NCBI GenBank assembly: GCA_964396785.1
Contig: CAYNFU010000001.1
Coordinates: 943-64,942, forward strand
DNA from: an uncultured Gammaproteobacteria bacterium
Lineage (GTDB): Bacteria > Patescibacteriota > Microgenomatia > UBA8517
Direction: 5' to 3'
DNA length: 64,000 nt
This document shows, piece by piece, positions 46,536-64,000 of the stretch; within the stretch, counting starts at the first letter, position 1, and each line of letters opens with the position of its first letter. The notes beneath the pieces were generated by a model. That model did no database searches. It was not told the origin of the DNA and was given only the letters and a program-made list of their open reading frames with translations. The translations under genes and the position numbers were made by a program.

Positions 46536-48149
46536 CTAGTTAGCGACAGCCTCGAAATAAAGATATCCGTTTTCTCCGTATATCCTTTTAACAATATTTG
46601 CCTCATTCGGTATTTCCTCGTCGGTTCCGACAATTAAGCTTCCTAGGTTTTGGGGCTTTAGGCTGTCAAAGTCTATCGGGACAAATTCGTAATTACCAAA
46701 ACTCCTCACCGTTGAAAATCCATATTTATCTTTGGCCGAAAGGCTATGCTCCTCCTGGAATCTTTGGGGTGGGTATTTTAAATAAAAAAGAAAAAGAATA
46801 TAAGGCTGGTCGTAGCGATCCGTAACTATTATCTTCTGGTTCTCTTTCTCCTTAATATAGTCTACCAACTCCTTTACCCCATACTGCGAGGAGAAGGGAA
46901 ACTCTTTGGCCATATGGACCCAATACATGTGTTCGTACCTAGCAAAACCCCAGATAATAAGAAGGGAAAGCGCCAAATAACCCCAAGATCGAATTTTCCT
47001 AAGGCCCCTAAACCATGAGAGGATTGTAATAAGCCCGTATGCACTGATTACTGTTAGTGGAATCACCATGTTTTGGGCTCTTAGGGCGTGGGGAGATTGA
47101 AAAGTGAGAGCAGCTGCCGTTGGAGCCAGAACTAGCCACATCAAAATCGCTCCCCACCCTCTGGGTCTAACGGCAATTGCCATAAGACCGAAAGTTAAGA
47201 AAATTAAGTCAAATAAATACATCTGCCCGGTCTCGGGCACCTTATTTCTCTCTATTTTATCCCCAGTAAGAAATAGAAATTCACCCCAGAAATGCTGTGA
47301 ATAGTTTAAGCCGAATGCCAATGAATAGTTAACCACCTTGTTGTGAAGGACTTTTGGCAAAAGAGCTAAATAGTCTGGGTGTTCCCCTCGCTGTTCATTT
47401 ATTCTTGCAAGTGGCCCAGGGTCTGCAAAAAGCCCAACCCCTGCCGCACGCGACCTGACCTCACCTTTGGCAAAATCGGCTCCTAAAGGAAGAAGCAGGA
47501 TAAGCGCAACCAAGCCGGAAACGGCAAATTTTCTGATATTGGGTTGTATTTCCTTTCGATAAATAAAACTAAGTCCGATAACAAGGAGAGGCACAACTAC
47601 TCTTGCGGCGTGGTAGGTATAGAAAGCGCTTACGAAGGCGAGTGTGCTAAAAACATATAATTTTGGATTATTTAAGGCCTTTAAAAATAACCATAAGCCT
47701 AGTGTAATGAAAAAAGTCGCAACATTAACCTCCCAGGCTCCTCTTGAGAAATGAATGTGCCAAGGAGAAATTGCCAGGAACAGGCTTGAGGCGAGTGCAA
47801 GTTTTTCATTTTTGAAAAGCTCCTTTACCAGAAGATAAAGGATTAGTACCGTCCCTACCCCAAGTGCTGCCCCCGGAATCCTAACCGCCCACTCGTTTAA
47901 TCCCAACACTTTTACAAAAGGCAGAACAAGATAAAAATAAAACCCTGGTTTGTAATCGTTGAACGACTGAAAATGGATGGGCCAGGCATTCCCGTGCTCG
48001 TCTTTTCCTGTTTCTACTAGAGAGTAGGCATTATAGCCAATTGCAGCCTCATCTGCGTTAAGTGCCGGAAAAGAATCAAGCCTCCAAAACCGTAAAAAGG
48101 AAGCTAACAGTAATATTAAAAAAAGTAGTAACCTTGTTTTTCTTAACAT
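46536..48149 (-). CDS. GT-C-fold membrane glycosyltransferase, GT39 (PMT/ArnT)-like. Tandem paralog 1.
   Basis: 537 aa with about 11 TM helices. The first loop is NADEAAIGYNAYSLVETGKDEHGNAWP. The conserved C-terminal soluble domain is WVHMAKEFPFSSQYGVKELVDYIKEKENQKIIVTDRYDQPYILFLFY. Confidence 0.75.
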   Translation of the reverse strand: MLRKTRLLLFLILLLASFLRFWRLDSFPALNADEAAIGYNAYSLVETGKDEHGNAWPIHFQSFNDYKPGFYFYLVLPFVKVLGLNEWAVRIPGAALGVGTVLILYLLVKELFKNEKLALASSLFLAISPWHIHFSRGAWEVNVATFFITLGLWLFLKALNNPKLYVFSTLAFVSAFYTYHAARVVVPLLVIGLSFIYRKEIQPNIRKFAVSGLVALILLLPLGADFAKGEVRSRAAGVGLFADPGPLARINEQRGEHPDYLALLPKVLHNKVVNYSLAFGLNYSQHFWGEFLFLTGDKIERNKVPETGQMYLFDLIFLTFGLMAIAVRPRGWGAILMWLVLAPTAAALTFQSPHALRAQNMVIPLTVISAYGLITILSWFRGLRKIRSWGYLALSLLIIWGFARYEHMYWVHMAKEFPFSSQYGVKELVDYIKEKENQKIIVTDRYDQPYILFLFYLKYPPQRFQEEHSLSAKDKYGFSTVRSFGNYEFVPIDFDSLKPQNLGSLIVGTDEEIPNEANIVKRIYGENGYLYFEAVAN

Positions 48150-49004
48150 CTATTTGACTAACAATAAACCCAAAAAACCCAAAAAGGATCCTGCAATCTT
48201 CCAAATAATTCTCTTTCTTTCATTAAGAAAAAGAATCGCAAAAATCACAGTTACAACAACACCTATGGAATTTAAAGAAATTACTTGTGATGAATTTTCC
48301 GCAATCTGCAACGCATAGAAAAACAAAATTGCAGACGCTGCATAGAATAAACTTAAAGTCGCCATTCTAACAAATGTCCCCTTCACTAGAAAAACTTTCA
48401 TTTTTTTAATACTGCCGGAGTAAAATACTAGAACCGACAATGCTGGAAGGACAAATGCAAGGAATGAGTAAGGGAAAACATCAAAGTGCCCAAGGAGAAA
48501 TCTGTCGTTAACCACAGAGAACCCGAAAAACATTGCAGCCAGAAGAGAATAAATTTCTTTAAAAGAGAATTTAATTTTCCTTTTTTCCAAAGATACAATT
48601 ACTGCAGCAGAAAGGATAAGCAACGTACCTATCCATTGTGAAACTGTAAGACTTTCTTTCATTAAAAGCGAAAAAGCCAAAATTGCAAAAATTGCTCTGG
48701 AACTAAAGATAACAGAAAATTTTGACGCTTCGGTTCTTTTTAGTGCTTTAAACACAAAAATATTACCAAGTGCATAAAGAACTATCATTATTAAAAAGTT
48801 TAATATCAAAGGCTTGAAATCAGGGTACTTCATTGTGGTAAATAAATATCCAAAAATCCCTATCATAAGGCCTGTTAAAAGTTGGAAGAAAGAAGCATAA
48901 GCCACCGGATCACTATCCTTCTCCCTGACCAGTATTCTCTGCAGTAATACAGAGATAGAATAACAAATAACGCTCAAGATAATTAGTATTTGCCAAGTCA
49001 CCAT
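48150..49004 (-). CDS. EamA / DMT-superfamily transporter (10 TM, two EamA repeats)
   Basis: 284 aa. The two approx. 140 aa halves each carry an EamA-type helix pattern (…ALGNIFVFKALKRTEASKFSVIFSSRAIFAILAFSLL… / …LFYAASAILFFYALQIAENSSQVISLNSIGVVVTVIFAILFL…). It lies inside the GT-C paralog array. Confidence 0.7.
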   Translation of the reverse strand: MVTWQILIILSVICYSISVLLQRILVREKDSDPVAYASFFQLLTGLMIGIFGYLFTTMKYPDFKPLILNFLIMIVLYALGNIFVFKALKRTEASKFSVIFSSRAIFAILAFSLLMKESLTVSQWIGTLLILSAAVIVSLEKRKIKFSFKEIYSLLAAMFFGFSVVNDRFLLGHFDVFPYSFLAFVLPALSVLVFYSGSIKKMKVFLVKGTFVRMATLSLFYAASAILFFYALQIAENSSQVISLNSIGVVVTVIFAILFLNERKRIIWKIAGSFLGFLGLLLVK

Positions 49005-50671
49005 TATTTGGCCTCCATTATTAAATATGCCAGTGACCCGTCTGGCCTAAGAACTTCTTTAAGAATTGAATAGTCGCTTATAACTTGTTTTCTTGGGGCA
49101 ACTATCTCATCGGCAACAACGATAGTTCCAGTCGGATACTTGTATGGCCAACTCAAATACTGAAACTTTAGGTGTTTAAACTCACTTACAAGCCCCACGT
49201 CGCCGACGCTGCTTGACTCATAAACTGCGCTCTCCCAAAATTCTTGAGGGTCCCTTTTATCGTAAAAAAGAAAATATATAAAGGGCTGGGCGTATGACTG
49301 CTGGAAAACTACTTGTCGTGAATTAAGGTTCGACTCTTTTAAATATTGAACCGCCTCCCTGTAACCGAATTCCCAATATTTAGCCCCGTGCTTTGGAAGA
49401 TGTACGTAATAGGAATCTAGGTAGTATATATAGTTAAGAAAATATAATGCCACAAATCCCCATATAGCAATTCTTTTCAAATAATTCTTAGACAAATTGG
49501 CAAATAAGCCATGAAGGGCAAGCGAAGAAATAATAATCAAGGGAATTGCCATATGAAGACTCCTTACCCCATGAACGGGGTCTCTCGACAATATTGAAGG
49601 AACGGGTGCCAAAACAAGCCACAAAAGGAGGAATAAGAAATATTTGTTCTTAAGGCTTCGGATAAATAATATAAGTCCTGCAAGAATTAGAACGGAGTCT
49701 GCCAGAAGAAACATTCCCATATTTATCGAATTGTGTCTCGGGTTATTCCAATCACCCTCAAAAAAAAGAAATCTTCCCGAAAAATGGTTAAACCACTTTC
49801 CCATTATTACCCTAACCCAGTTAAGAGACTCCGAATGAAAAGCCAAATAAGTAGCTCCTCCTGGCTTCTCGCCACCCTGCTCCAGTATTTCTTTTATATC
49901 TGTCTCACTTCTCGGATATGAGAATGTGCTTACCACCGTAAGCCTTCCTGCGTAACCGGTGTAAACGCTTATTAAAATTGGCAAACTAATAATAATTCCT
50001 ACCCCAAAAGACCCCAGAAGCACTTTTTTGTCAAATCTTATTAAATTTTTGAAAAATAGTAGTCCGAGAAGTAAAACTACAATTGGAGTTGAAAGCTTGG
50101 CCCCCTGATAGCTAATGAGTGTTAGTCCGAAAAAAATTGCAGAGGCAAAAAGAAATCTGTTCTTTTCAAAAGATTTCATGAAGAAATAAATGCCGATAAG
50201 GGTCAGGCAAAAGGCGAGGTTAGGTACCCAGGCACCTCTGGAAAAATGTATAAGCCAGGGGTTGGTAGCTGCCAAGAAACCGGAAAATAGGGCAATACTC
50301 TCGAAATTTTTGTATTTAGCCTTTTCAAAAATTATCCTGGCTAAATGGAAGACAAAATAAACAATTATTACCCCGAAAATGGCGTTAGGGAGCCGAACGC
50401 TCAATTCATTTAAACCCATCACCCCAATAAACGGTGCAGCCAAATAGACGTAGAGCCCCGGAGTGTAATCTCCAAAAGACTTAAACACGATTGGCAAAGA
50501 CTCTCCCCAGAAATCTTTGCCTGTTTTTAATATTGAATAAGCGTTATATCCCAAAGCTACCTCATCGGAAGTCAGATGAGGAGGTATCGTCCCCAACTTC
50601 CAAAGCCTAAGAAATGCCGCCAAAAAAAGTATAAATAGGAGAATGGTTGTTGTATTAATAAATCGCTTCAT
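49004..50671 (-). CDS. GT-C-fold membrane glycosyltransferase, GT39-like. Tandem paralog 2.
   Basis: 555 aa. The first loop is HLTSDEVALGYNAYSILKTGKDFWGESLP. The C-terminal domain is YVHLPKHGAKYWEFGYREAVQYLKESNLNSRQVVFQQSYAQPFIYFLFY. Confidence 0.75.
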   Translation of the reverse strand: MKRFINTTTILLFILFLAAFLRLWKLGTIPPHLTSDEVALGYNAYSILKTGKDFWGESLPIVFKSFGDYTPGLYVYLAAPFIGVMGLNELSVRLPNAIFGVIIVYFVFHLARIIFEKAKYKNFESIALFSGFLAATNPWLIHFSRGAWVPNLAFCLTLIGIYFFMKSFEKNRFLFASAIFFGLTLISYQGAKLSTPIVVLLLGLLFFKNLIRFDKKVLLGSFGVGIIISLPILISVYTGYAGRLTVVSTFSYPRSETDIKEILEQGGEKPGGATYLAFHSESLNWVRVIMGKWFNHFSGRFLFFEGDWNNPRHNSINMGMFLLADSVLILAGLILFIRSLKNKYFLFLLLWLVLAPVPSILSRDPVHGVRSLHMAIPLIIISSLALHGLFANLSKNYLKRIAIWGFVALYFLNYIYYLDSYYVHLPKHGAKYWEFGYREAVQYLKESNLNSRQVVFQQSYAQPFIYFLFYDKRDPQEFWESAVYESSSVGDVGLVSEFKHLKFQYLSWPYKYPTGTIVVADEIVAPRKQVISDYSILKEVLRPDGSLAYLIMEAK

Positions 50672-50680
50672 CGAATCATT

Positions 50681-52453
50681 CTAATTTTCTAAAATCTCAA
50701 AGGCGGGTTTGCCGTCTAAGAAATTTATGGTTTTTAGTTTATTCCAGTTAGCTCTGTAACTCCCTGGGCTTGTAATTAACAAACATCTGGTTTCTTGCGC
50801 CTTACAGCTGACAATTCCGCCACTTTCGAGCGTAAAATCATCATTTGGCCCGGGAGTAATTTGCCAATCGTTTACGAAATAAAATTTATCGAATCTATCC
50901 ACCCAATACCAGTCTGATTGATGAAATCGTATCAGATTTGGGTCAGCTTTATATTTGGCCGGGTCCCAAGGCCAAAAGAACAAGAAGAATTCGTGGGGTT
51001 CTCCGTATTTCTTTGTAATTATTATTTTATCGTACTTTTGATAATTGTCCCTAGCATAATCAACTGCTTGCCTATATCCGTATTGCCAGGACCAAGAATA
51101 TTCTTCGGGATAGAGAGTAAAATAGTTCGTTAAATAACTTTTGGCAAGGAAAAATATTCCGACACAATAAAGTGTAAAAAAAATAAACTTAGTCGCGGGG
51201 TTTCCCTTTTTAGTTATTAAATCGTAGACAAAAAATAACCCAATTGCGGCTAAGATCTGAGGTAAGGGAAGCATGACAGAGGCGCGAGTCACGGCAAAAT
51301 GTTCACTAGTTATACTTCCGGCAATAGGGGAAAGCGCAAGCCAGGCCAAAAGTAACAGGTAGTCTTTATCTCCCTTAAAAGATTTCTTAAGAAGAATATA
51401 AATTCCCAAATAAAAAAACGGCAAATTGATTAAATAGGAGAGACCTTTCCCAGGAAGGCTATATTGAAACTGTGTTCCGCCGGATAAAAAGAGAAACTGC
51501 GGCGATAAATATTCTAGATAATTACGGCTAAAATGATAAATAAGATAGGTTGGTCTGTTGTAAATAAGTTTGGGGAGGGGTTGAGGTAAGGAAGAGGAGA
51601 GCCTGCCTTCCTCAATACTTGCAATCGCCCCCTCATTTATAATAAAAAGCCACTTGGCTCTCGCTCTTGCGGAGGGTTCTAAAAGAATTGCCCCGGCCAA
51701 GACGAAAAAGGCAATTAGCGCCGATATAGAAACTATGGGGATGAAGCTTTCCCTTTTTATTAAATTTTTAAATTCGCCACGATATATAACCAGGGTCGCA
51801 ACTAGTATAAGTGGAGAAAATATTCTGGTTGAGTGATAGGAAAAAAGCGACAGAAAAAGAAAGGCAAGTGAAAGTGGAAGTAAGTATTTCTTTTTATCTC
51901 TATTAAAAAAGGCAGCCGCCGACGCAGTAAGCAAAAAAATCGAAAGGTTTTGTTGTAAAACTACTCTTGAGGTAAATAATGTCCACGGCTCAATAGCTAC
52001 TAGAAAAGAAGAAAGAAGGGCTAATTCCCTGCGTTTAGTTAGTCCCATTGCAAGGAAATACGTGGCAACTGTCGTAAGAACGCCTAAAACTGCATGGGGA
52101 AATCTGATTGCAAATTCGTTAAGCCCAAAAACCAGTATTGAAGGGATGGTCATATAGAGATTTAGGGGCAAAGGATAATCGCCGTAGGCTCGAAAATTGA
52201 CAACGGGTAAGGCCTGCCCCCATTCGTCTGCTCCCGTTTTCAATATCGAATAGGCGTTATAGCCGTGCGAAACCTCATCCCAATTAACTGCAGGGGGGAA
52301 ATCTGAAAGGTTAATGAGCCTAAGGGCGGCCGCCAAGACCAAGACCAGAAAAAGGAGCTTGTTTTCCAAAAACAAACCCCAACCCTTCTTAAAAAGAGTC
52401 CTCATAGCAAAATTATATCTTCGCAAAGTCAAAAAGTCGAAGAAGTAGTACAA
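50681..52453 (-). CDS. GT-C-fold membrane glycosyltransferase, GT39-like. Tandem paralog 3. The true start is probably the internal ATG (MRTLFKK, approx. 52405).
   Basis: 590 aa ORF. The first loop is NWDEVSHGYNAYSILKTGADEWGQALP. The C-terminal domain is YPEEYSWSWQYGYRQAVDYARDNYQKYDKIIITKKYGEPHEFFLFFW. The ORF-track start overlaps the upstream gene by 25 nt. Confidence 0.75.
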   Translation of the reverse strand: MYYFFDFLTLRRYNFAMRTLFKKGWGLFLENKLLFLVLVLAAALRLINLSDFPPAVNWDEVSHGYNAYSILKTGADEWGQALPVVNFRAYGDYPLPLNLYMTIPSILVFGLNEFAIRFPHAVLGVLTTVATYFLAMGLTKRRELALLSSFLVAIEPWTLFTSRVVLQQNLSIFLLTASAAAFFNRDKKKYLLPLSLAFLFLSLFSYHSTRIFSPLILVATLVIYRGEFKNLIKRESFIPIVSISALIAFFVLAGAILLEPSARARAKWLFIINEGAIASIEEGRLSSSLPQPLPKLIYNRPTYLIYHFSRNYLEYLSPQFLFLSGGTQFQYSLPGKGLSYLINLPFFYLGIYILLKKSFKGDKDYLLLLAWLALSPIAGSITSEHFAVTRASVMLPLPQILAAIGLFFVYDLITKKGNPATKFIFFTLYCVGIFFLAKSYLTNYFTLYPEEYSWSWQYGYRQAVDYARDNYQKYDKIIITKKYGEPHEFFLFFWPWDPAKYKADPNLIRFHQSDWYWVDRFDKFYFVNDWQITPGPNDDFTLESGGIVSCKAQETRCLLITSPGSYRANWNKLKTINFLDGKPAFEILEN

Positions 52454-54108
52454 TAAATGCTTTTGACCTTTTCTGATTTACATTTTAGGAAAGGATTTGT
52501 CCTATAAACTTGGAAGACAACTTCCCCAAGAGGCTCCTTAATCTCAAGTGCTTTTTCGAGCTTGTGTTCTTGGGCCTGCTCTGGGGAAATTGCAAGACTA
52601 TCCCCCACTAAAAATTGCTCTTTATAAATATCTTTTTCCCAAATAATTGCCCTTGTTTCTATATTCGCAAACTTAAAGTTTTGATCGAAAGGAGGGTTTT
52701 CATAATAGTTTTTTCTGATTGTGGGATCTACCGAATTCTGAAACTCCTGGGGTGGAACCTTGAGGAAAAACGCCAACTCTATGTAGGGGATGGGAATCCT
52801 TACCCTATCAATAACAAAATGCGAGTCGGGATTCTTTTTGATAAATTGAGATAGTTCTGCGTATCCATATGCCCAATATTTAGCCTTTTCAACGGGAAAA
52901 ATTACAAAATAAGACCGCCAAAAAAGTATTAGGGAAAAACAAAATACGACTATTCCCAAGATTACCCAAAAACCCCGGTTAATAAGTTTTCTTTTGAATA
53001 TTTTTGTCGAAATTATCTTATCTAATCCCAAAGCTATAGCTAAAAAGATGGGAAGAATAAGGGCTAATGTTCGATGAACAGGAAACGGGTCCTTGGTAAG
53101 CGATGCTGTGATTGGTGCTGAGAGGGCCAATAGAAAAATAAATTTTGAACGATCGCTCTGCCTTTTCTTCCACAGTAAATAAATTCCAATTAAATAAGGA
53201 ACAAGCATCCATTGATAAAAAAGCGTAAGACCCGGCAGGTCTTTGTAGCCAGCTAAAAATAGCGATTTTGGCGAGAAATAATTCGCAAACTGTGATGAAA
53301 ACTCCCTAATAAAGGAAAGTAAAATGGCTAAAGGGGCAGGTATGAAGCCTTTCAATTTTTCGGATTGCATCAAAATATTTTGAAGTCCTGTTTCTTCGGT
53401 TTTAGGCAAAAATACAGGGGTAGTAAGAAGGTACAAATGCGGAATCTGAGTCAAAATTAAAACCCCTAAAGCGTACAAGAAATTTTTCCTGTTCGATTGA
53501 GCTAAAAGGAGCTTTCTAAAAAATAAAAAGTAAAAGACAAGCACAAAAGGAACTGTAAACCTTTGGGCATACGCGGCGTAAGTTGAAAGGGAAAGAACAA
53601 AAAATGCTGGGATGAGCCAATTTTGTTTTTTTACAGACAACCAGAGAAAATAACTTCCCAAACAAAAAAGTGTGAATGCTAGACCTATCTCGTCTCCAAC
53701 TCTCGCACGAAATACAACCACGGGTGTTATCGCGAAAAACAAACTTCCGATAGTTGAGATTTTCATACTTTTCAAAAAAGCATAAATTATGAATATTAAG
53801 GCTAAGCCCGAAAGCGCCGCGATACTCCTTACAGAAAAAGCAGTCAAACCCCATATCTTGATTGGCAAAGTAGTGAGGTATACATAAAGAGGTTCATTGT
53901 AAGAGCCATACATTCGAAAGACCATAGGGAAGGCTTTTCCATATTCGTCTTTCCCGGTTTCTAAAATCGAATATGCCGAATACCCGTGTAAGGCTTCGTC
54001 TACATAAAAGCCTGGCGGGATTACATCGAGTTTATGAAAGAACATAAAAATCCCGACTATAAGAAGTAGCGATAAAAATATTATTTGTTTAAAAGAAATT
54101 TTCGGCAT
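52429..54108 (-). CDS. GT-C-fold membrane glycosyltransferase, GT39-like. Tandem paralog 4.
   Basis: 559 aa. The first loop is FYVDEALHGYSAYSILETGKDEYGKAFP. The C-terminal soluble domain is VIFPVEKAKYWAYGYAELSQFIKKNPDSHFVIDRVRIPIPYIELAFFL. Confidence 0.75.
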   Translation of the reverse strand: MPKISFKQIIFLSLLLIVGIFMFFHKLDVIPPGFYVDEALHGYSAYSILETGKDEYGKAFPMVFRMYGSYNEPLYVYLTTLPIKIWGLTAFSVRSIAALSGLALIFIIYAFLKSMKISTIGSLFFAITPVVVFRARVGDEIGLAFTLFCLGSYFLWLSVKKQNWLIPAFFVLSLSTYAAYAQRFTVPFVLVFYFLFFRKLLLAQSNRKNFLYALGVLILTQIPHLYLLTTPVFLPKTEETGLQNILMQSEKLKGFIPAPLAILLSFIREFSSQFANYFSPKSLFLAGYKDLPGLTLFYQWMLVPYLIGIYLLWKKRQSDRSKFIFLLALSAPITASLTKDPFPVHRTLALILPIFLAIALGLDKIISTKIFKRKLINRGFWVILGIVVFCFSLILFWRSYFVIFPVEKAKYWAYGYAELSQFIKKNPDSHFVIDRVRIPIPYIELAFFLKVPPQEFQNSVDPTIRKNYYENPPFDQNFKFANIETRAIIWEKDIYKEQFLVGDSLAISPEQAQEHKLEKALEIKEPLGEVVFQVYRTNPFLKCKSEKVKSIYCTTSSTF

Positions 54109-54957: not shown

Positions 54958-56578
54958 GGGGGGCTACATGAGATGGAAATTCTTCGGGCCGGCCCACAAC
55001 CAAATAGTTCATACCTTTAAGGTCCGAAATCACGATATCTCCGAAAGTAAATTCAGCCATAGAATATTCGTTCAACTGGTCCAAATATTTTATTCCTAAT
55101 TTCTCATATCTTAACCAAACACGAGACGCATCTTGAACTTCGCTTGGGTCGACCTGCATATAAAACTGAGCCCAAATGTTGGGAACAGAAAGGGTCCTAC
55201 TTAATACCACTCCTTCATAATTTCCCTCGATACTATTTATAGTAGCCATTATGTCCTTCATGCCGTATTGCATGGCCTTAGAAGCCCTGAGCGGAGCGTG
55301 ATAGCGGTAATCTTCCAAGAAACCGGCCAGGGAACCAAGTAAAATAATTAAAACTCCCCAAGCAAACCCTTTTGCCAAGCCGTTGCCGTACCTCCCTTTC
55401 AGCTTCTCATAAAGATATACTCCACCCCAGACTGATATTACCTGTATCGCTGGTATCATTACGGCAGCGCGGTTTGCCGCAAAGCCAGGGCCCTTGGTAA
55501 GAGCAGCGGCAATGGGAGAAATCAAAATCCAAAGAAGAAATAGCCCCATTTTGTTAAACCCTTCCTTTTTGGCAAAAGAAAAAATGGCGGCTAAAACAAA
55601 AATCACCTCAAAAACGTAAAGTACTCCCCTTCCGGGTATTAATCCATAGCTCCATTCTCCGGCTCCCTCGCTAAATAGAAACGAGGATGAAAAATATGAA
55701 AGGTAATTTTTGCTGAAGGTCTCAAAAACATAACTTACTTTGTTGGAAAATATTCGAGCGTAAAAATCAGGGAAGCCCTGAAGTGTAGCCTCATAGCGCC
55801 TGTCGGCAACCGCAGCCCAATTGTCGGTAGGGCTAATAATTGTAATATCCAAACCCCTTTTGGCCCCACCCGTAAACATGGTAAATATAGCGGTTGCCAA
55901 GAAAACACTGAATATAAGTAGCCCCCATTTATACTTGGACAATATTATCCCTTGTACCTTTGCCCCCATTTGTTTTAATTCCTTTAAGTAACTTCCAACT
56001 AGAACAAGGATAAGTACTGGGGTAAAAAGTCTTGCGGAATGGTAAGAAAACAAATTTAGGCCAAAGGAAATTGCCGCCAAGACCATAAAACGGGGTTTTT
56101 CGATGGCTGTAACAAATGCCCAGACGCCCAAGGGAATAAAAAAGGTTGTCAAATTGGCCTCAAACGCGCCCCTAGAAAGACCTATATGCCAAGGTGAGAC
56201 CGCCAGAAAAAGAGCTGATAAAAGACCAAGCTCCTTCCTTTTGGTTATTTTGGAAACCATAAGGAAAGTGGTCAGAACCGCCAATGAGCCTAAAATAGCG
56301 TTGGGAAGCCGCACGCTAAATTCGTTCAGTCCTAATAAATAAACCGAGGGGATTGCTAAATATGAATAAAGGGGCATTTTAAAGTCCCCGAAAGAGCGTA
56401 AAACCAAAGGCAGAGACTTTCCCCATTGGTCCTTGCCGGTAAGGAGCAGTGAGTATGCGTCGTATCCCAAGCCCGCCTCGTCCTGGGTAAAACCCACGGG
56501 GAAGGAGGAAATGCCAACGACCCTCAAAAGAAGGGCTCCAATAAAGATGAAGGATAAAAGTATTAAGTATTTTTTCAT
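54893..56578 (-). CDS. GT-C-fold membrane glycosyltransferase, GT39-like. Tandem paralog 5.
   Basis: 561 aa. The first loop is FTQDEAGLGYDAYSLLLTGKDQWGKSLP. The C-terminal domain is YHAPLRASKAMQYGMKDIMATINSIEGNYEGVVLSRTLSVPNIWAQFYM. Confidence 0.75.
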   Translation of the reverse strand: MKKYLILLSFIFIGALLLRVVGISSFPVGFTQDEAGLGYDAYSLLLTGKDQWGKSLPLVLRSFGDFKMPLYSYLAIPSVYLLGLNEFSVRLPNAILGSLAVLTTFLMVSKITKRKELGLLSALFLAVSPWHIGLSRGAFEANLTTFFIPLGVWAFVTAIEKPRFMVLAAISFGLNLFSYHSARLFTPVLILVLVGSYLKELKQMGAKVQGIILSKYKWGLLIFSVFLATAIFTMFTGGAKRGLDITIISPTDNWAAVADRRYEATLQGFPDFYARIFSNKVSYVFETFSKNYLSYFSSSFLFSEGAGEWSYGLIPGRGVLYVFEVIFVLAAIFSFAKKEGFNKMGLFLLWILISPIAAALTKGPGFAANRAAVMIPAIQVISVWGGVYLYEKLKGRYGNGLAKGFAWGVLIILLGSLAGFLEDYRYHAPLRASKAMQYGMKDIMATINSIEGNYEGVVLSRTLSVPNIWAQFYMQVDPSEVQDASRVWLRYEKLGIKYLDQLNEYSMAEFTFGDIVISDLKGMNYLVVGRPEEFPSHVAPLATFTYLDGAPSYILVDANEL

Positions 56579-58266
56579 TGGCTTTTTGAGTAGATGTAAA
56601 AAAGCGGCGTATGTTCTGGAGAATAAATAATGTCTAACAAAGTGAGCTCGGGGTTATCAAAAATGTAGGGGTTACTCACGTCTTTTTCAGTGGATGCAAC
56701 TATCAAATTTCCTTCTTTCGCCAGAGTCTCGATAGGTTTAACCAGCTCCCCAAAATAATATTTTTCTCCAAGCTTGAATCCATTAAACCCCGGGTATATG
56801 CCTCCGATGTGTTTATCGTCCTCAAAAGTTTTCTGGAAAAGTTCCATATCATATCCGTACCAAAATAAAAATCGGGTCAGCATGGGTTCGTAGGTGTTGT
56901 TTAAAAACACCCTTTCATATCTTCCCTCATTTGCCCTAACATAGCTTCCAACCTCCTTAAATCCATACTGCCAGGCCCGCCAGCTCTCCTTAGGCCAAAT
57001 CACGAAAAAGCCGTGGAAAAAACGCGATACTTCATAAAGCATTAAAAGAATAAATACCCCTAGCAATAACTTTCCTTTAAGTTTACCGGAGTACCCAAGG
57101 ATTGAGCTAAAACCCAAGGCAGAAAGGGCGATCAAAGGAGGCAACATGAGTATCAGCCTCGACGCGTGGGTTCCACCTCCTTCGGTTAGAACAGATGGAA
57201 GTGGGGCAAGAATTAACCATATGCCGATAACTTTAAAAATTCTCTTTTTTTCCTCAGATAGCTTCGAATGGGTGGAAGCCCATATGAAGAGCCCAATAAG
57301 AATAAGAACTAGGTCGAAATAGTAAAAAACTCCGTAGCCCTTAACCGATTGTCTCGGGTTGGGATCCCCTTCCGAGAAAAGAAAACTCGGGGAGAAAGAC
57401 TTAAGATAATTTTGAAGGATTCTTTCTGTAACCACTGTCGCTTTATTGTTAAAAATTCTCGAAAGGGTCGTGTTTGAGAATTTGCGCCCTTCCTCAACCT
57501 CAAGAATAATATCCCTCTTGGGAGCAATTGTAATATAAGAAAACCTCTGGGTTGTTCTACCGCTGACTGACTGGGCGATGTATGGAGCTAGAAGAACCAG
57601 CGAGACAAAAGCCAAAGACAGAAGCTTTTTTGGTCCATATGCAAAAATTTTCTTTCTATAAATGGCAACTAGAAAAAGAACAAAAAGAGGGACAAATAAT
57701 GAGGCTATCGCATAGGTATAAATCCCGAGAGCAAAAAAAACTGCAGAGAGTATCAGGAATTTAAACTCTTTTACTCCTTTAACAAAATAGAGCGTTCCCA
57801 AAATTATAAAGGGGAGAAGAATTCCTGCGTCATTTGCCTGCCTTGAATAAAGAAAATGCCAGGGAGAAATTGCCAAAAATATCGCGGCAACTGTCGCCAC
57901 TTTCTTGTCAAAAAATTCTTTTACCAAAAAATATAAGGCAATAATTGAGATAAAACCCATAATGACCGACGGGGCCCTTACCCCCCACTCACTTAGTCCC
58001 AAGATTTTAATAAATGGGGCGTCTAAATAAAGCTGCATTGGGAGCCTATATTCGGCAAAGCTGTGGAATAAAATGGGCAGCTTATTTCCGAAATAATCCC
58101 TGCCGGTTTGGGCAATCGAATTCGCCTGAAGGCCGACGTCAATCTCGTCTCCAAATAACGAAACGGGGACTTTATCAACCTGCCAGAATCGCAAAAAAAT
58201 CGCTACAAAAAAAACAAGCGCTGCAAAAATAAAGAGAGGATTTTTAAGATATTTCCTCATACCCAA
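56575..58266 (-). CDS. GT-C-fold membrane glycosyltransferase, GT39-like. Tandem paralog 6.
   Basis: 563 aa. The first loop is LFGDEIDVGLQANSIAQTGRDYFGNKLP. The C-terminal domain is WPKESWRAWQYGFKEVGSYVRANEGRYERVFLNNTYEPMLTRFLFWY. Confidence 0.75.
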   Translation of the reverse strand: MGMRKYLKNPLFIFAALVFFVAIFLRFWQVDKVPVSLFGDEIDVGLQANSIAQTGRDYFGNKLPILFHSFAEYRLPMQLYLDAPFIKILGLSEWGVRAPSVIMGFISIIALYFLVKEFFDKKVATVAAIFLAISPWHFLYSRQANDAGILLPFIILGTLYFVKGVKEFKFLILSAVFFALGIYTYAIASLFVPLFVLFLVAIYRKKIFAYGPKKLLSLAFVSLVLLAPYIAQSVSGRTTQRFSYITIAPKRDIILEVEEGRKFSNTTLSRIFNNKATVVTERILQNYLKSFSPSFLFSEGDPNPRQSVKGYGVFYYFDLVLILIGLFIWASTHSKLSEEKKRIFKVIGIWLILAPLPSVLTEGGGTHASRLILMLPPLIALSALGFSSILGYSGKLKGKLLLGVFILLMLYEVSRFFHGFFVIWPKESWRAWQYGFKEVGSYVRANEGRYERVFLNNTYEPMLTRFLFWYGYDMELFQKTFEDDKHIGGIYPGFNGFKLGEKYYFGELVKPIETLAKEGNLIVASTEKDVSNPYIFDNPELTLLDIIYSPEHTPLFYIYSKSQ

Positions 58267-60086
58267 TTATCGAGCCAGCCAGATAACATTACAAGCATCC
58301 AGATAGCCCCCGCATTATTTTCTTTCCCTTTCTGATGGGCAGTCCAAATACTCTTAATTTTTTTTTTCTCGACATAGTTTTCGAGTTTCTTATTCATAAG
58401 TATTGTATACGCAAAATCTTTTAGTTCATTTCGTAACCATTTTTTTAGTGGTATTCCAAATCCTTTCTTTGGTCTTTTGGCTACTTCCGGAAGCCTACTC
58501 TCCAAAAGCTTTCTAAGTTGAAGTTTCGTTTTAAATAAGTTCAAATGGGGCTCTCGGGTTGAAAATGCCCAGGCAAGCACATTGTTATCTAGATAGGGAA
58601 CTCTAACCTCGAGACTATTAAGCATCGAAGCGCGGTCTGTTTTAACCAAAAAATCGTCGCGCAGGTAGGTATAAAAATCGACAACTTGACCTACACGACT
58701 TTTATCAAATCTATCTAAATTCGGTATCATTTTTGATAAAAATGACATATCGGGTTTTTCAAATAAATTGTTCTCTCCAATAAAAAACGTCCTCATCCAA
58801 TAAAGTTGTCTTTCCAAATCGCCAAATTTCATACCCTTAAGGACTATTTTCGCAAGATGCTTTTTGGGGTAGTCTTTGAATGACGTCGGAAATAGGTTAA
58901 CGACAGATTCGGGTAATCCCTCAAGAAGTCCCGAAAGAAGGGTATTCGGTAAAAATTTAAGTAAATTAGCATAAAGGTGGGCTTGGTGGGTCGGATATCC
59001 CCCAAAAAGCTCATCGCCCCCGTCACCCGACAGGGCAACGGTCACATGCTGCCTTGCCAGCTGACTCACCTTATAAGTCGGGAAGAGTGACGCATCCGCT
59101 AGTGGCTCATCCAATTTCGGAATTATTTTCTCATAAATATCGACGACGTCTTTTGGGCTAAATTCATCACTAAAATGCTCTGTCCCTATTTTTTTAGCAA
59201 CACTGTGCGCGTATTTTGCTTCGTCAAAACCTTCTTCTTTAAAACCTATCGAGAAGGATTTGAGTTTTTTAAATTTGGCTACATAGTAAGCTATTAAACT
59301 TGAGTCGAGGCCCCCGCTCAAAAAAACGCCAACTGGAACGTCGGAAACAAGCTGGCTTTTAACTGCGGTCTCTAATAGTTTGTCTATATTGTCAGTTTTA
59401 TTTTCCGAGCTGGAATTAAGTTCAAAATACTTAGCAACTTTCATTCCAGATTTCTTGAAGCTCAAGGTATGTCCCGGAAGCAGCTTTTTAATTCCAGAAA
59501 ACATGACTTGGTCTCCAGGAAGAAATCCTAGATAACCATACATGCTAAGGGCCTTACTATCTGTTTTCTTTTTATATAAAGGGTGGGAAAGAATTACTTT
59601 CGGTTCAGAACCAAATATCAAAAGATTTGAGGCTACATAATAATAAAGAGGTTTTATCCCAACTCTGTCACGTCCCAGAAAAATCTTGTGCCCCTTCTCG
59701 TCCCAAAGAGCAAAGGCAAACATACCGTTTAATTTAGGAACAAAGCCTTCACCGTATTCTTCATATCCGTGTACCAAGACCTCGGTGTCGGTTTGGGTTT
59801 TAAATTTATGTCCCCTTTTCTCGAGTTCCTCTCGAAGCGGCTTATAATTATAAATTTCTCCGTTATAAATAACGACGACGCTCCCGTCTTCATTTTTAAT
59901 CGGCTGATCCCCAGTTGTTAGGTCAATAATTCGAAGTCTACGAATTCCAAGTGCGGCAACATTATCTCGACTCCTATATATTCCTGTCGAATCCGGTCCC
60001 CGATAAATAATCTTTTTCGTCATTTCGCCAATGACCGAAGGACCCGTTCTTCCTGAAAAATCAACGTACCCGGCAATCCCGCACAT
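58257..60086 (-). CDS. asnB: Asparagine synthetase (glutamine-hydrolysing) family amidotransferase, AsnB-like. Second copy.
   Basis: 609 aa. It starts MCGIAGYV (Cys2 nucleophile). LSGGLDSS is the PP-loop. It is embedded in the glycan locus between GT-C paralogs. Confidence 0.9.
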   Translation of the reverse strand: MCGIAGYVDFSGRTGPSVIGEMTKKIIYRGPDSTGIYRSRDNVAALGIRRLRIIDLTTGDQPIKNEDGSVVVIYNGEIYNYKPLREELEKRGHKFKTQTDTEVLVHGYEEYGEGFVPKLNGMFAFALWDEKGHKIFLGRDRVGIKPLYYYVASNLLIFGSEPKVILSHPLYKKKTDSKALSMYGYLGFLPGDQVMFSGIKKLLPGHTLSFKKSGMKVAKYFELNSSSENKTDNIDKLLETAVKSQLVSDVPVGVFLSGGLDSSLIAYYVAKFKKLKSFSIGFKEEGFDEAKYAHSVAKKIGTEHFSDEFSPKDVVDIYEKIIPKLDEPLADASLFPTYKVSQLARQHVTVALSGDGGDELFGGYPTHQAHLYANLLKFLPNTLLSGLLEGLPESVVNLFPTSFKDYPKKHLAKIVLKGMKFGDLERQLYWMRTFFIGENNLFEKPDMSFLSKMIPNLDRFDKSRVGQVVDFYTYLRDDFLVKTDRASMLNSLEVRVPYLDNNVLAWAFSTREPHLNLFKTKLQLRKLLESRLPEVAKRPKKGFGIPLKKWLRNELKDFAYTILMNKKLENYVEKKKIKSIWTAHQKGKENNAGAIWMLVMLSGWLDNWV

Positions 60087-60131
60087 ATGTAGATTATCTC
60101 AATATTTAGTAGAATATACTACTTATAAGCT
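60087..60131. promoter_or_regulatory. Divergent intergenic region between asnB (minus) and the HD hydrolase gene (plus). GATAAT (minus strand, 60093..60098) lies 6 nt upstream of the asnB ATG. TATACT/TATAAG hexamers lie on the plus strand upstream of the HD gene.
   Basis: The minus-strand sequence reads AAATATTGAGATAATCTACAT-ATGTGCGGG. The plus-strand sequence reads TAGAATATACTACTTATAAGCT-GTG. Confidence 0.35.
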
Positions 60132-60731
60132 GTGAAAAAGAAATATCTAAAAATTTTTCTCTTAGCCTCACCATTCTATCTCAAGGGAAGAAGCGCCGAT
60201 AAGTTGCACCACCTGGTCGTAGCCAGAATGATGGAAAAAATCCTTAAAGAAAACCCCAAATTAGATTCTGATGTAATGATGGCTGTTGCTCTACTTCACG
60301 ACATAGGCTATGCCAAAATTCCAAAGCATAAAATTGGGAGTTTCTGGGCAAAAAAGATAAAAAAGGACCATATGAGGTTGGGAGCAGAGCTTGCACAAGA
60401 TATCTTAGGCAGGATCAATTTCCCTCAAGGAAAAATAGAAAGGGTTTGCGAAATCATCGCAACTCACGATAATCCCGAATTGGGCCTACCGATATACTCT
60501 TATGAAGCGGAGGTTCTAAAAGAAGCAGACATTCTTTGGATGACGACCGAAGAAGCATTTTGGCTGGATATTGGCAGAAGGCAAATTCAACCAGAGGAGT
60601 GGCTTACTACTTTAGAAAAAAGATTCAGCAAAGATCCTGAGTATAAGCCCTATATTAAGACAAAATTTGGCAAAGGCCGAGTCAGGAATTTTCTAAGGCA
60701 AATGCGAAAGAAATTAAGGGGACAGCCTTAA
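60132..60731 (+). CDS. HD-domain metal-dependent phosphohydrolase. GTG start as in the ORF track; the true start is uncertain.
   Basis: 199 aa. It contains H...HD...H...D elements: KLHHLVVAR, AVALLHDIGY, IATHDNPE, LKEADILW. It is one of only two plus-strand genes. Its stop overlaps the stop of the convergent GT2 gene by 4 bp. Confidence 0.65.
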   Translation: MKKKYLKIFLLASPFYLKGRSADKLHHLVVARMMEKILKENPKLDSDVMMAVALLHDIGYAKIPKHKIGSFWAKKIKKDHMRLGAELAQDILGRINFPQGKIERVCEIIATHDNPELGLPIYSYEAEVLKEADILWMTTEEAFWLDIGRRQIQPEEWLTTLEKRFSKDPEYKPYIKTKFGKGRVRNFLRQMRKKLRGQP

Positions 60732-61684
60732 AACTTCTCAATATCTTTAACTTCGTAAATAGATTTTCCTTGGGATTCGAAATAGGTACGCACCTGAAGT
60801 TCAGCCAAAAATCCCATTAGCATAAATTGCACCCCCAAAAAGCCCAAGAAAATGGCTATTAGAAAAACCGGATTCCTATGGACAAAAACTCCAAGGAAGA
60901 GCTTTTGATAAGTGGTCAAGATTAAGGCCAAAGCCCCGAGCGCCATACTCCCCAACCCGAACGACCCAAAAACATAAGCCGGTTTGGTTCCGTAAGAGCT
61001 TATAAATTTCACTGTAATAATGTCAATTAACGTCTTTACTATTCGGTTAAATCCGTATTTTGACTGACCCGCCATCCTGGGTCTATGCTGTACCACAATC
61101 TCTCCAATTTTTGCTCCCTTAAGGTATATGAGTACTGGGAGTATTCGGTGGAGTTCCCCGTAGAGTGGCATATCTTTCAAAAAGGACCTTTTGACTACCC
61201 TCGCAGAACAACCCACATCGTGGTAGGGATATGAGAATACAAAATTAATAACTCTATTAGCTGCACCTGAATAAAAACGTCTCGCTCTTGAGAATTTTTT
61301 TTCTTTGCGCCAACCAAAAACCGCGTCGTACCCTTCGTCCATCTTCTCTAAAAATCTAGGAATGTCGAAGGGATCGTTTTGTAAGTCTGCGTCCAAAAAA
61401 GAAATTAAATTACCTTCAGAGTTTTCTATTCCTGCGGCAACCGCACCTGTTTGGCCAAAGTTCCTAAGAAGTGTGACCACCTTGACAGAAACTTTTCCAT
61501 TTCCCTTTCTAACTGCTCTTTTTACTTCTTCGGCGGATGAATCGGTACTCCCGTCATTTACATATATTACCTCCGAGGGGGAAGAGAGGCCTTCCAATAC
61601 TTTTACGAGCTCTTCGTGAAGCTTAGGTAAATTACTCTCTTCATTAAAAAAAGGAACTACCACCGAAAGGTTAATGTTACTCAT
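60728..61684 (-). CDS. GT2 polyprenyl-phosphate sugar synthase (GtrB / ArnC / DPM1-like) with two C-terminal TM helices
   Basis: 318 aa. LSVVVPFFNEESNLPKLHEELVKVL...VIYVNDGSTDSS, FLDADLQND (DxD). C-terminal PAYVFGSFGLGSMALGALALILT...FLIAIFLGFLGVQFMLMGFLAELQVR is typical of the GtrB family. Confidence 0.8.
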   Translation of the reverse strand: MSNINLSVVVPFFNEESNLPKLHEELVKVLEGLSSPSEVIYVNDGSTDSSAEEVKRAVRKGNGKVSVKVVTLLRNFGQTGAVAAGIENSEGNLISFLDADLQNDPFDIPRFLEKMDEGYDAVFGWRKEKKFSRARRFYSGAANRVINFVFSYPYHDVGCSARVVKRSFLKDMPLYGELHRILPVLIYLKGAKIGEIVVQHRPRMAGQSKYGFNRIVKTLIDIITVKFISSYGTKPAYVFGSFGLGSMALGALALILTTYQKLFLGVFVHRNPVFLIAIFLGFLGVQFMLMGFLAELQVRTYFESQGKSIYEVKDIEKF

Positions 61685-61685
61685 G

Positions 61686-63002
61686 TTACCTCTTTAATGT
61701 TAGCACGTGAGACTCTTGCTTTCTTCCAGATATAGAAAATCTACTTGCCATTAAATACTTTTTATACATGGCAATATAAATCATAAAGCTACCTAACCCC
61801 AAAACCCTCGTTGCCAGCCTGTCTTGGTACGAAAGCAGTCGTATCAATAAGTCTATTTTCGGAATCCACCAAAAATTATATAGATTCAAAAGGTTAATGG
61901 CACTAAGAAGATAGTAGTACACAGAAGCTCCTTTCTCCAAAACCGCTACAACTATAAAGGTAGTAAAAAATGGATATAAGTACCTTTCGTGCATGTTTGT
62001 AAGTAGCATAAATGAGGAAAGAGTAACTATCGAAAGGGACCAAAAAGTGGACGTAGTATCCTTTTTCTTGGCTAAAACAAAAAGTACAGGGATGTAGCTT
62101 AAGAAAAATAAGATATATCCCCAAATTTTAAATGGTAGAGGTCCAAATAATAGATCATGGGGGCGCGCATGTATTCCTTTTATGGCAGCCCAAATATTAA
62201 ACGCATTGGCTGTAATAAGTTGTAATTGCTCAGTCATGACTTTACTTTTGTAGAAATCGTAAATCCAATAGAAGGTATTATTTTTGGAAAAGGGCAGAAA
62301 AAGAAGAAATACAGTAACTAAAATCACAATTAAAGCAGTAAAATACTTTCTCGGTTTATATTTCTGGGCTAAGGCCACAATAAGAAAAACAGGAACGTAG
62401 ATTAATAATGAAATTTTTATATAAAGTGAGATTATTAGAGAAACTATTGCCCAGTTGAGGTTCTTTCTAAATAACAAATAAAAGGCAAGAACCGCAAAGA
62501 AATTGTTTACCGATTCATACTGACCCCAAACGACCGAGTTATAAATTATTACCGGGTTTAACAAAAATAGGAGTGCTCCAATTTGGGCCTTTTTCTTATC
62601 TGAAAGCTTTAATATTATTTTGTAAATCAAGAGGGCTATTCCGAAATCTGCCAATATTGTAGGTATTTTTGCCACAAAGTAGATAAAGTCCCTCTCGAAG
62701 TAAAACATCAAATTCGAGGGAAATACTGGGATATTAACATTTAAAAACCAGAAGAAAGAATAAAAAAGTTCAAATAATTTTCTAATTCCCGCGTAAAGAA
62801 GAATCGTACCCGGAGGCTGGTTGGGCCAATCGAAGCTCCAGACGTTACTTTCAAAGAATAGTTTTGGGCCATACTGCCAAAACCTGGTCCCCCAGTCGAG
62901 TGAGTTTCTTAAATCCGTATGGACTGGGGTTGGCAGTAAGGCAATTATTAGTCTTAATAGAAGGGCGGCGAGAATTATGTATAAAAACTTTTTTGCAGTC
63001 AT
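61686..63002 (-). CDS. Polytopic membrane protein, unknown family (possible GT-C-like glycosyltransferase)
   Basis: 438 aa with about 12 TM helices. The first loop is FWQYGPKLFFESNVWSFDWPNQPPGTILLY. No soluble C-terminal domain. Confidence 0.5.
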   Translation of the reverse strand: MTAKKFLYIILAALLLRLIIALLPTPVHTDLRNSLDWGTRFWQYGPKLFFESNVWSFDWPNQPPGTILLYAGIRKLFELFYSFFWFLNVNIPVFPSNLMFYFERDFIYFVAKIPTILADFGIALLIYKIILKLSDKKKAQIGALLFLLNPVIIYNSVVWGQYESVNNFFAVLAFYLLFRKNLNWAIVSLIISLYIKISLLIYVPVFLIVALAQKYKPRKYFTALIVILVTVFLLFLPFSKNNTFYWIYDFYKSKVMTEQLQLITANAFNIWAAIKGIHARPHDLLFGPLPFKIWGYILFFLSYIPVLFVLAKKKDTTSTFWSLSIVTLSSFMLLTNMHERYLYPFFTTFIVVAVLEKGASVYYYLLSAINLLNLYNFWWIPKIDLLIRLLSYQDRLATRVLGLGSFMIYIAMYKKYLMASRFSISGRKQESHVLTLKR

Positions 63003-64000
63003 TTAATTTTTTGTAAGAAATAAAAAGCGGGTTCACCGGATGGATATTGAACGACTTTAACGAGTTTTAATCCCTCGGGAGTGTATTGTGGTTCCATTAC
63101 CAAATTCCCTTTAATTTCTCTTGCGGAGGCTACATATAAAGTGTCATTATCTAAATAATCACCCAGACCACCCAGTCCGACTTTTCCATCTACCTGTCCA
63201 AAGTAAGTTTTAGCGAAGTACTCTAGCTCTCCAAACCCGTTTACCTTCTCTTTAGAAAGTCCTTTTTGCCACTCTTCGGGGTCAGCGAGGTAATAGGCAG
63301 CAAAAAATATTCTAGGATCGTCGTTCGCGTTTGTGAGAATAATCTTTCTATACTGCCCTTGTTTGTCTCTTAGGGTATCTACTACTTCCTTATACCCGGC
63401 ATGCCAGGAACGCTCAGAATACCAAATGTTGTGCGTCCAGTAGTTATGCTCGTAATAGACAAAACTTATAAAATACAGAAAAACGAAACTTGCGGTGAGT
63501 ATTATGCGCTTTTTACCTAACAAGGAGTGAAATGCTTCGAAAATGCCATAGGAGATTAAAAAAACCAAAGGGGGCAAAATAATAACAAGTCTTGTAGCGT
63601 GGGTTCCCCCGTCTCTTGTTATTGCTGAAGGTAAAATCCCTATGAAGATCCAAAACAACATCAAGAATTTAATCTTTCTGTCTTTGAATCTGGTAAAAAA
63701 CAAAGCAACACCCAATAAAAGCGCCACTACCTCAAACTTATAAAACTGTCCCATCCCCGCAATTGAATGTCTTAGGTTTGGATCTCCCTTTAAAAATAAA
63801 AATTCGAAGGATAAAGAAGAAAGGGAGTTATTGATAACCTTGGAGCCCCAAAAGCTAAATTTGTTATGAATAACCCTTGTTAATACTTTCGAGACAATAC
63901 CCCCACCATAAACATTTCTTACCTGGGCGTCATATAAAATTGAGTAATCGACTTCGGATTTCGTGGTGGGGTCGGTAAAAATACTCAAGTATTCGGCACG
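62999..64000 (-). CDS. C-terminal part of a further GT39-like GT-C paralog (tandem paralog 7). The 5' end lies beyond the right edge of the window.
   Basis: The reading frame is open to the window edge. The translated region (…FLFLKGDPNLRHSIAGMGQFYKFEVVALLLGVALFF… ERSWHAGYKEVVDTLRDKQGQYRKIILTNANDDPRIFFAAYY…) aligns with the last TM helices and the C-terminal soluble domain of paralogs 1-6. Confidence 0.6.
   Translation of the reverse strand, partial: RAEYLSIFTDPTTKSEVDYSILYDAQVRNVYGGGIVSKVLTRVIHNKFSFWGSKVINNSLSSLSFEFLFLKGDPNLRHSIAGMGQFYKFEVVALLLGVALFFTRFKDRKIKFLMLFWIFIGILPSAITRDGGTHATRLVIILPPLVFLISYGIFEAFHSLLGKKRIILTASFVFLYFISFVYYEHNYWTHNIWYSERSWHAGYKEVVDTLRDKQGQYRKIILTNANDDPRIFFAAYYLADPEEWQKGLSKEKVNGFGELEYFAKTYFGQVDGKVGLGGLGDYLDNDTLYVASAREIKGNLVMEPQYTPEGLKLVKVVQYPSGEPAFYFLQKIK

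Follow-up and report, generated by a model that had tools for sequence, protein, structure and literature searches.

A conserved array of GT-C glycosyltransferase paralogs in Microgenomates suggests an unstudied pathway for building a cell-surface sugar polymer

The 64,000 nt stretch of DNA analyzed here (the window; contig CAYNFU010000001.1 of assembly GCA_964396785.1) belongs to a groundwater genome of Woesebacteria-like Microgenomates, in the candidate phyla radiation (CPR), and carries at 46536–64000 an array of seven paralogous genes, named g1 to g7 with g1 at the lowest coordinates, that encode GT-C (PMT_2-type) membrane glycosyltransferases. An earlier note on this DNA had placed seven minus-strand open reading frames (ORFs) in this region, and all seven were found where it had them, with the likely starts of g3 and g6 shifted slightly.

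The array genes and the family they form

46536..48149, minus strand: g1, GT-C glycosyltransferase, 537 aa, the last and most conserved array member; PMT_2 and PMT above the gathering cut-off
49004..50671, minus strand: g2, GT-C paralog, 555 aa; PMT_2 3.8e-8
50681..52408, minus strand: g3, GT-C paralog, 575 aa from the ATG at 52408 (the ORF reaches a TTG at 52453); PMT 7.7e-11
52429..54108, minus strand: g4, GT-C paralog, 559 aa, a variable member; 620 bits against the hidden Markov model (HMM) of the family, DE motif present, own Pfam match absent
54893..56578, minus strand: g5, GT-C paralog, 561 aa; PMT_2 3.7e-10, PMT 1.9e-7
56575..58260, minus strand: g6, GT-C paralog, 561 aa from the ATG at 58260; PMT_2 1.4e-19, weak STT3 7.5e-5
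62999..64000, minus strand: g7, GT-C paralog, the C-terminal 333 aa of a full length of 573 aa being inside the window; 368 bits against the family HMM

The multiple alignment of the paralogs that the earlier note had called for was made with MAFFT, and the pairwise identity of g1 to the other paralogs in the window is 25–33%. An HMM built from the paralogs scores g1–g7 at 368–738 bits and the next-best ORF in the window at 47 bits, which puts the resemblance between them far above chance. The full-length g7 is present at L087:1721-3442, on a contig that encodes an identical neighboring protein, and contains the motif SDELDVGYQAYSIIKTGRDYSG. The first-loop motif DE-x3-G[YL]-xA[YN]S-x3-TG[KR]D-x2-G is carried by g1–g6 and by this full-length g7, so that the loop-1 signature described previously as common to all seven is indeed present in each once g7 is recovered in full. 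On a Rifle scaffold (L086:8868-10004) g7 is only 378 aa, as against 573 aa on two other contigs with an identical downstream protein, which is probably an assembly or frameshift difference.

Membership of the Pfam families PMT_2 (PF13231) and PMT (PF02366) was judged by the gathering cut-off, which is exceeded for PMT_2 by g1, g2, g5, and g6 and for PMT by g1, g3, and g5. There is no Pfam match of their own for g4 and the partial g7; existing records of the g4 ortholog (L001) and of the full-length g7 list PMT_2. As in the GT-C superfamily, an acidic DE-type motif is located in the first loop after the first transmembrane helix (TM1), and the paralogs are polytopic membrane proteins of the GT-C-A fold, superimposable on solved GT-C enzymes, with EmbC, AftA, AftB, AftD, and PimE among the structural matches. 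The description of the paralogs as PMT/ArnT-like GT-C enzymes stands, with PMT_2 or PMT matches above cut-off for g1, g2, g3, g5, and g6, but they are neither true GT39 PMTs nor ArnT equivalogs. The former identity is rejected because no paralog has a Pfam match to MIR or PMT_4TMC at E ≤ 0.01; at about 550 aa, the paralogs are also shorter than the eukaryotic PMTs found as structural matches, which exceed 700 aa. The latter (GT83) is rejected because there is no ArnT NCBIfam model among the paralog matches and a profile comparison with ArnT (5ezm) gives only E = 0.011. Searched against PDB sequences, a profile of the seven paralogs finds nothing at E ≤ 1 and g3 as a single sequence finds only noise, while a 20-sequence profile has marginal matches to STT3 and ArnT in which loop 1 is outside the aligned region.

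Residue conservation was counted, with g1 numbering, in 348 members of the family at 81 Microgenomates loci. The DE pair is residues 33–34, directly after TM1, and is present in every member aligned there (D33 340/340, E34 340/340). D50 is found in 340/341, R90 in 342/343, R136 in 335/345, where the other 10 have His, and R357 in 348/348. Since these key residues are essentially invariant, every orthogroup looks catalytically active. A DE loop that was not conserved had been named beforehand as one of several findings that would tell against a GT-C interpretation; none of those findings was made, and the interpretation is supported.

Likewise confirmed is a shared conserved C-terminal region, here of about 120 aa, in which Y423, G424, and F455 are near-invariant. 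It is a small alpha/beta domain for which there is no strong structural match, so the suggestion of a known fold such as a carbohydrate-binding module was not borne out, and it is best taken to be a divergent C-terminal domain of GT-C type, predicted from homology to be extracytoplasmic. Divergence between the paralogs is highest in this domain and in the long loop 229–276, while loop 1 and residues 124–138 and 337–351 are common to the whole family. This pattern would fit a common donor and catalytic site with paralog-specific acceptor surfaces.

Gene order and neighbors across Microgenomates

There are thousands of homologs of g1 at 62–79% identity, annotated as 'GT39 family', 'ArnT family', or 'hypothetical'. 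Those that are named are nearly all from Patescibacteria/Microgenomates (Woesebacteria, Curtissbacteria), with one labeled Candidatus Omnitrophica. Among 1.84 billion representative proteins, a profile search matches 6,683 clusters at E ≤ 1e-30. In a scan of species-representative genomes there were at least 552 matching stretches, and wherever one of the best 80 loci has an informative title it is from Microgenomates (Woese-, Blackburn-, Ames-, Collier-, and Daviesbacteria). The Woesebacteria assembly GCA_001792155.1 has an identical gene order, with proteins 60–88% identical.

In most loci the 10 kb upstream of the g1 ortholog contain three to six same-strand family members, the g1 ortholog being usually the last, a further downstream member being present in few loci (e.g. 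L078, L083, L084). Each paralog in the window has orthologs of its own, for which the best bit score is roughly double the next one, and their order is preserved. Among the 60 Microgenomates loci with at least 8 kb of sequence upstream, a g3 ortholog is present in 100% (60/60) and a g2 ortholog is immediately upstream of g1 in 87%, the same proportion that has the order g3-g2-g1. There is a g5 ortholog in 70%, the order g5-g3-g2-g1 in 60%, a g6 or g7 ortholog in 57%, and a g4 ortholog in 15%. The array has a conserved core (g5, g3, g2, and g1) and a variable 5' part. A set of such genes at one locus had been called very unusual, which is the case for bacteria generally; across Microgenomates it is the norm, a hallmark of the lineage and not a peculiarity of the source genome.

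Many of the loci, L008, L010, and L012 among them, are in metagenome-assembled genome records titled 'uncultured Gammaproteobacteria' or 'uncultured Pseudomonadales' and carry the Microgenomates-type array; these titles look like placeholder or erroneous taxonomy labels. The contig names of relatives suggest aquifer groundwater, with sample labels that resemble those of the Rifle site.

The genes between and beside the array members are as follows.

40455..40796, minus strand: DUF2304 (GacJ/Rv3632-like) small membrane protein, 113 aa, partner of the PpgS-like GT2; PF10066 1.8e-14
40793..41440, minus strand: PpgS/AglJ-like GT2, 215 aa; NF058614 PpgS 2.7e-33, full length
41437..42195, minus strand: PgfS/PpgS-like GT2, 252 aa; PF00535 1.8e-24, PgfS 5.5e-18
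42206..43354, minus strand: PIG-V-like GT-C, 382 aa, about 9 transmembrane (TM) helices; classified via orthologs
43351..44397, minus strand: GT4, about 348 aa from the ATG; PF00534 2.3e-30; ATGA overlap with each neighbor
44394..45251, minus strand: GT2, 285 aa, the most conserved neighbor; PF00535 4.9e-18
45253..46530, minus strand: FAD-dependent amine-oxidase-like oxidoreductase; PF01593 3.7e-27, PRK07233 (a 'hypothetical protein' equivalog) 3e-125
48150..49004, minus strand: EamA/DMT-family transporter, 10 TM; PF00892 3.2e-26; at this position in the closest relatives only
54109..54903, minus strand: unclassified six-TM protein, 264–282 aa; no Pfam or NCBIfam match; conserved in close relatives only
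58257..60086, minus strand: AsnB-type glutamine amidotransferase; Asn_synthase 9e-87, GATase_7, TIGR03108-like 2.8e-142 under its cut-off
60132..60731, plus strand: HD-domain phosphohydrolase, the sole opposite-strand gene of the array region; PF01966 4.4e-12
60728..61684, minus strand: ArnC/GtrB/PgfS-like GT2 with two C-terminal TM helices; NF007986 (ArnC) 1e-49 over 7–309 of 316, PgfS 5.5e-37
61686..63002, minus strand: PIG-M/ALG6-like GT-C, 438 aa; 24-ortholog profile against PDB, GPI mannosyltransferase 1 4.7e-9, ALG6 7.2e-9

The genes interrupting the array are thus those that had been noted, namely the EamA gene, a small membrane protein, AsnB, HD, a GtrB-like GT2, and a membrane protein previously left unclassified (61686–63002), the last of which can now be classified by its ortholog profile. 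Such profiles were required for both 61686–63002 and 42206–43354, which are predicted to be additional GT-C enzymes of other classes; the earlier note had recognized neither as a GT-C. Of 25 orthologs of 42206–43354, 11 match PF04188 Mannosyl_trans2 (best 1.4e-10), 6 match PMT_2, and 3 match GT87.

Homologs of the window genes were also counted beside the array in the 81 loci. The GT2 at 44394–45251 has a homolog just after the g1 ortholog in 76/81, at a median identity of 49%. Homologs of the GT4 at 43351–44397 are beside the array in 67/81, of the PIG-V-like GT-C in 57/81, and of the GT2 at 41437–42195 in 48/81, with a homolog of the PIG-M/ALG6-like GT-C upstream of the array in 29/81. What emerges is an ancient colinear operon, (g6/g7)-g5-g3-g2-g1-GT2-GT4-[PIG-V-like GT-C]-GT2, often with the PIG-M/ALG6-like GT-C ahead of it. 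Stop and start codons overlap as ATGA at g7/61686, AsnB/g6, and g6/g5 and as TAATG at g2/EamA, by which the array genes appear to be translationally coupled, and the co-directional genes from 60086 down to about 35013 have gaps of no more than about 45 nt.

The FAD oxidoreductase has a counterpart directly after g1 in 9/81 loci and is lineage-specific; the AsnB-type protein, which probably acts in sugar or glycan amidation, has one in 1/81; and the HD gene is not conserved in the other loci of the 81 compared. Together with the EamA gene, a lineage-specific insertion whose product is a candidate flippase for lipid-linked sugars, these are not conserved neighbors and were rejected as core parts of the system. 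When the family profile was compared by hhalign with the two unclassified membrane proteins the matches were insignificant (probability 6–11%). The weak match of 54109–54903, to family columns 288–411 at a probability of 11%, is to the TM region that follows the family's long loop and pairs LYFFANHPNER with FLFxxGDxNxR, and this protein might be a truncated paralog of the family.

Putative polyprenyl-phosphate sugar synthases are encoded at 60728–61684 (ArnC/PgfS-like) and at 40793–41440 (PpgS-like, with DUF2304), so that a GT2 of this kind is encoded with the GT-C genes. Their presence in the same string of genes would fit lipid-linked monosaccharide donors for g1–g7. The DUF2304 protein GacJ forms a complex with, and stimulates, the GlcNAc-P-Und (N-acetylglucosaminyl-phosphate-undecaprenol) synthase GacI (bioRxiv 10.1101/180810), and the DUF2304 protein Rv3632 stimulates PpgS (PMC3485146).

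The rest of the window

The whole window (1–64000) is one glycan-biosynthesis island, nearly all on the minus strand, with about 16 GT-C, 8 GT2, 7 GT4, 6 S-adenosylmethionine-dependent methyltransferases, and two AsnB-type amidotransferases. A tRNA scan of the 64 kb found no genes. Past g7, which runs off the edge of the window, the island extends upstream with genes for two methyltransferases, a further PMT_2 protein, a GT4, a GT2, and Polysacc_synt_3. Other features of the window are as follows.

5151–6506: Wzy_C
7067–7669: hexapeptide acyltransferase
21324–22604: Wzx-like gene, a candidate flippase elsewhere in the island
26783–28558: carbamoyltransferase
14954–16312, 18247–19719, 29635–30993, and 38182–39666: ORFs with 8–9 TM and weak PMT_2 matches (E 3e-6 to 3e-4), absent from the earlier note

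Only 18247–19719 of these last four reaches the gathering cut-off. The ORF at 9885–11294, which had been taken for an eighth copy, does match PMT_2 but is outside the g1–g7 family in an all-against-all phmmer comparison. The same comparison excludes the more distant candidates that had been put forward, although 3692–5197 matches PMT_2 and 23375–24919 does so below the cut-off; 24967–26790 has no match at all. These three PMT_2-matching ORFs and the four weaker ones are, on their sequence matches, separate GT-C lineages.

The ORFs at 31945–33528 and 35013–36623 encode paralogous proteins of about 530 aa with 9–10 TM (phmmer E = 1.6e-97 to each other) and no Pfam or NCBIfam match; flanked by methyltransferase genes, they are a second membrane-protein family of the island. 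The large membrane proteins at 11291–13120 (609 aa) and 24967–26790 (607 aa) are without family assignment, and homologs of the former are found downstream of the array in 8/81 other loci.

A proposed assembly line and its alternatives

The array genes may constitute a serial extracytoplasmic glycan assembly line fed by lipid-linked sugars, which is the best supported of the readings considered and to which we would give about an even chance. Cytoplasmic GT4 and GT2 enzymes would prime a membrane-anchored acceptor. The ArnC-like and PpgS-like (with DUF2304) GT2 enzymes would load sugars onto polyprenyl phosphate, and these lipid-linked sugars would be flipped across the membrane, for which the EamA protein and the Wzx gene product are candidates. 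On the outer face of the membrane each GT-C paralog, using the invariant loop-1 Asp-Glu...Asp site, would then add one sugar to the growing glycan in one specific linkage. Stepwise elongation by g1–g7 is plausible, the paralogs showing the distinct orthogroups, conserved order, and co-occurrence expected of serial GT-Cs. The fixed order and co-inheritance of the genes favor a single pathway, as does the co-conservation of GT4, GT2, PIG-M-like, and PIG-V-like genes; the apparent translational coupling is also counted in its favor.

There is precedent for many GT-Cs acting serially on one lipoglycan in the synthesis of phosphatidylinositol mannosides (PIM), lipomannan (LM), lipoarabinomannan (LAM), and arabinogalactan, where the first steps are taken by GT4 enzymes at the cytoplasmic face and the product is lengthened outside by many GT-Cs (PMC3485146). 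The mycobacterial and corynebacterial pathways have the GT-Cs PimE, MptA/B/C, EmbA/B/C, and AftA–D and the donor synthases Ppm1 and PpgS/Rv3632. Some of the mycobacterial GT-C genes are in tandem, as in embCAB. The array resembles these pathways in its many distinct GT-Cs, its putative early GT4 steps, and its PpgS-like GT2 with a DUF2304 partner. It differs in that its members belong to other sequence families, being PMT_2-type paralogs of about 550 aa without the large C-terminal carbohydrate-binding domains of Emb and AftD, and in its host, which is of a Patescibacteria lineage and has a genome of about 1 Mb. Arabinose donor genes of the DprE or UbiA type were not encountered. The serial steps of ALG3, ALG9, and ALG12 in the lumen of the endoplasmic reticulum are analogous. 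Unlike ALG3/9/12, ALG6/8/10, PIG-M, and PIG-V, however, the array is bacterial, its genes are clustered in an operon, and there is no sign of a dolichol-pyrophosphate-oligosaccharide or a glycosylphosphatidylinositol (GPI) anchor.

Several points weigh against the assembly line. The fold, the family, the conservation of the catalytic motif, the orthology and colinearity, and the adjacent donor synthases are established here, but the acceptor (whether a lipoglycan, a wall polysaccharide, or a surface protein), the glycan, the donor, and serial rather than parallel action are inferred from the genes. The location of the C-terminal domain outside the cell comes from homology rather than from computation. 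As the matches to PDB chains at the sequence level are marginal and do not cover loop 1, the DE pair is not alignable residue by residue to the catalytic residues of PMT or ArnT. No GtrA-type flippase was found in the window, and the EamA gene is not a conserved neighbor in the 81 loci; nor was an initiating phosphoglycosyltransferase (PF00953 or PF02397) found in the 64 kb, which is compatible with a glycolipid primer but remains a gap. A hetero-oligomeric complex would likewise account for the colinearity and co-inheritance, as would the parallel glycosylation of several essential targets.

Each paralog might instead act independently and use a lipid-linked monosaccharide to attach a side-chain sugar to its own pre-formed envelope polymer or at its own position, as in the Gtr systems or the multi-component systems that decorate lipoteichoic acid, wall teichoic acid, and rhamnan in Firmicutes. 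A PMT_2-type GT-C with a GT2 C55-P-sugar synthase is exactly the set of parts such systems use (PMC8035078), there are several candidate synthases and many other unrelated GT-Cs in the window, and the 5' members g4, g6, and g7 differ between genomes. The parts list of GtrA/B/C, CsbB-GtcA-YfhO, GacI/J/K/L, and ArnC-ArnE/F-ArnT corresponds to that of the array, where PMT_2-type GT-Cs are accompanied by a candidate flippase and by a GT2 synthase of polyprenyl-phosphate sugars that, like GacI with GacJ, has a DUF2304 helper. Those systems, however, have one GT-C per synthase for a single decoration, whereas the array has four to seven paralogous GT-Cs and two other GT-C classes in a fixed order, and unlike GtrA/B/C it has no GtrA, with EamA and Wzx as putative flippases. 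The known decoration GT-Cs are accessory, strain-variable, and usually paired one-to-one with their own GT2, while the core g5-g3-g2-g1 is colinear across class-level divergence, translationally coupled, and co-conserved with the GT4, the GT2, and the two other GT-C classes. Parallel decoration would therefore seem rather doubtful. Glycosylation of surface or secreted proteins (S-layer, pilins, adhesins) by paralogs similar to PMTs or PgfM1/PgfM2, which might form hetero-oligomers like Pmt1-Pmt2 with each paralog giving substrate or site specificity, is unlikely given that the MIR and PMT_4TMC domains are lacking, that the PMTs match no better than STT3, ArnT, and ALG12, that there is no candidate acceptor protein in the window, and that a lipid-anchored or polymeric glycan is what the co-conserved GT4 and PIG-M-like and PIG-V-like GT-Cs suggest. 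The best NCBIfam match of the paralogs carries the name 'flippase activity-associated protein Agl23' (TIGR03663), at 45 bits under a cut-off of 126, but that these proteins are transporters, flippase-associated proteins, or inactive scaffolds rather than glycosyltransferases is very improbable.

The assembly-line proposal can be carried further, although we advance this form of it only tentatively and with considerable doubt. The colinear GT-C array and the GT4, together with the PIG-M-like and PIG-V-like GT-Cs and the synthases of polyprenyl-phosphate sugars, could form the core machinery for a membrane-anchored lipoglycan or wall glycan that defines the Microgenomates lineage, an independent, CPR-specific counterpart to LM/LAM of mycobacteria. 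A hetero-oligomeric GT-C machine might build this glycan on lipids scavenged from the host, and the glycan might have a central part in envelope building and host contact in these ultra-small episymbionts.

Full-text literature searches found no account of a GT-C/PMT_2 array in Microgenomates or the CPR. The nearest reports are of a proposed PIM-like pathway in a saccharibacterium and of multiple dolichol-phosphate-mannosyltransferase annotations in Peregrinibacteria. Individual genes have already been annotated automatically as GT39 or ArnT-like; the conserved multi-paralog operon in an unstudied lineage would be a new form of GT-C-based extracytoplasmic glycosylation system, itself a known kind.

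To our knowledge, there is almost no experimental knowledge of the cell envelopes of Microgenomates and other uncultured CPR bacteria. Their genomes, judged from chromosome-scale contigs, are only about 0.6–1.1 Mb, and more than 64 kb is devoted to glycan genes here. The paralog set could be used to study the evolution of acceptor specificity in GT-C enzymes, because its members have a common catalytic loop but differ in the long external loop and the C-terminal domain. The array points to a pathway, so far unstudied, that may assemble a cell-surface sugar polymer outside the membrane, and its genes are concrete targets that can be tested biochemically or by analyzing the glycans of enrichment cultures. 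That gene order and catalytic residues have been kept class-wide would imply a core surface glycan pathway, which is probably essential.

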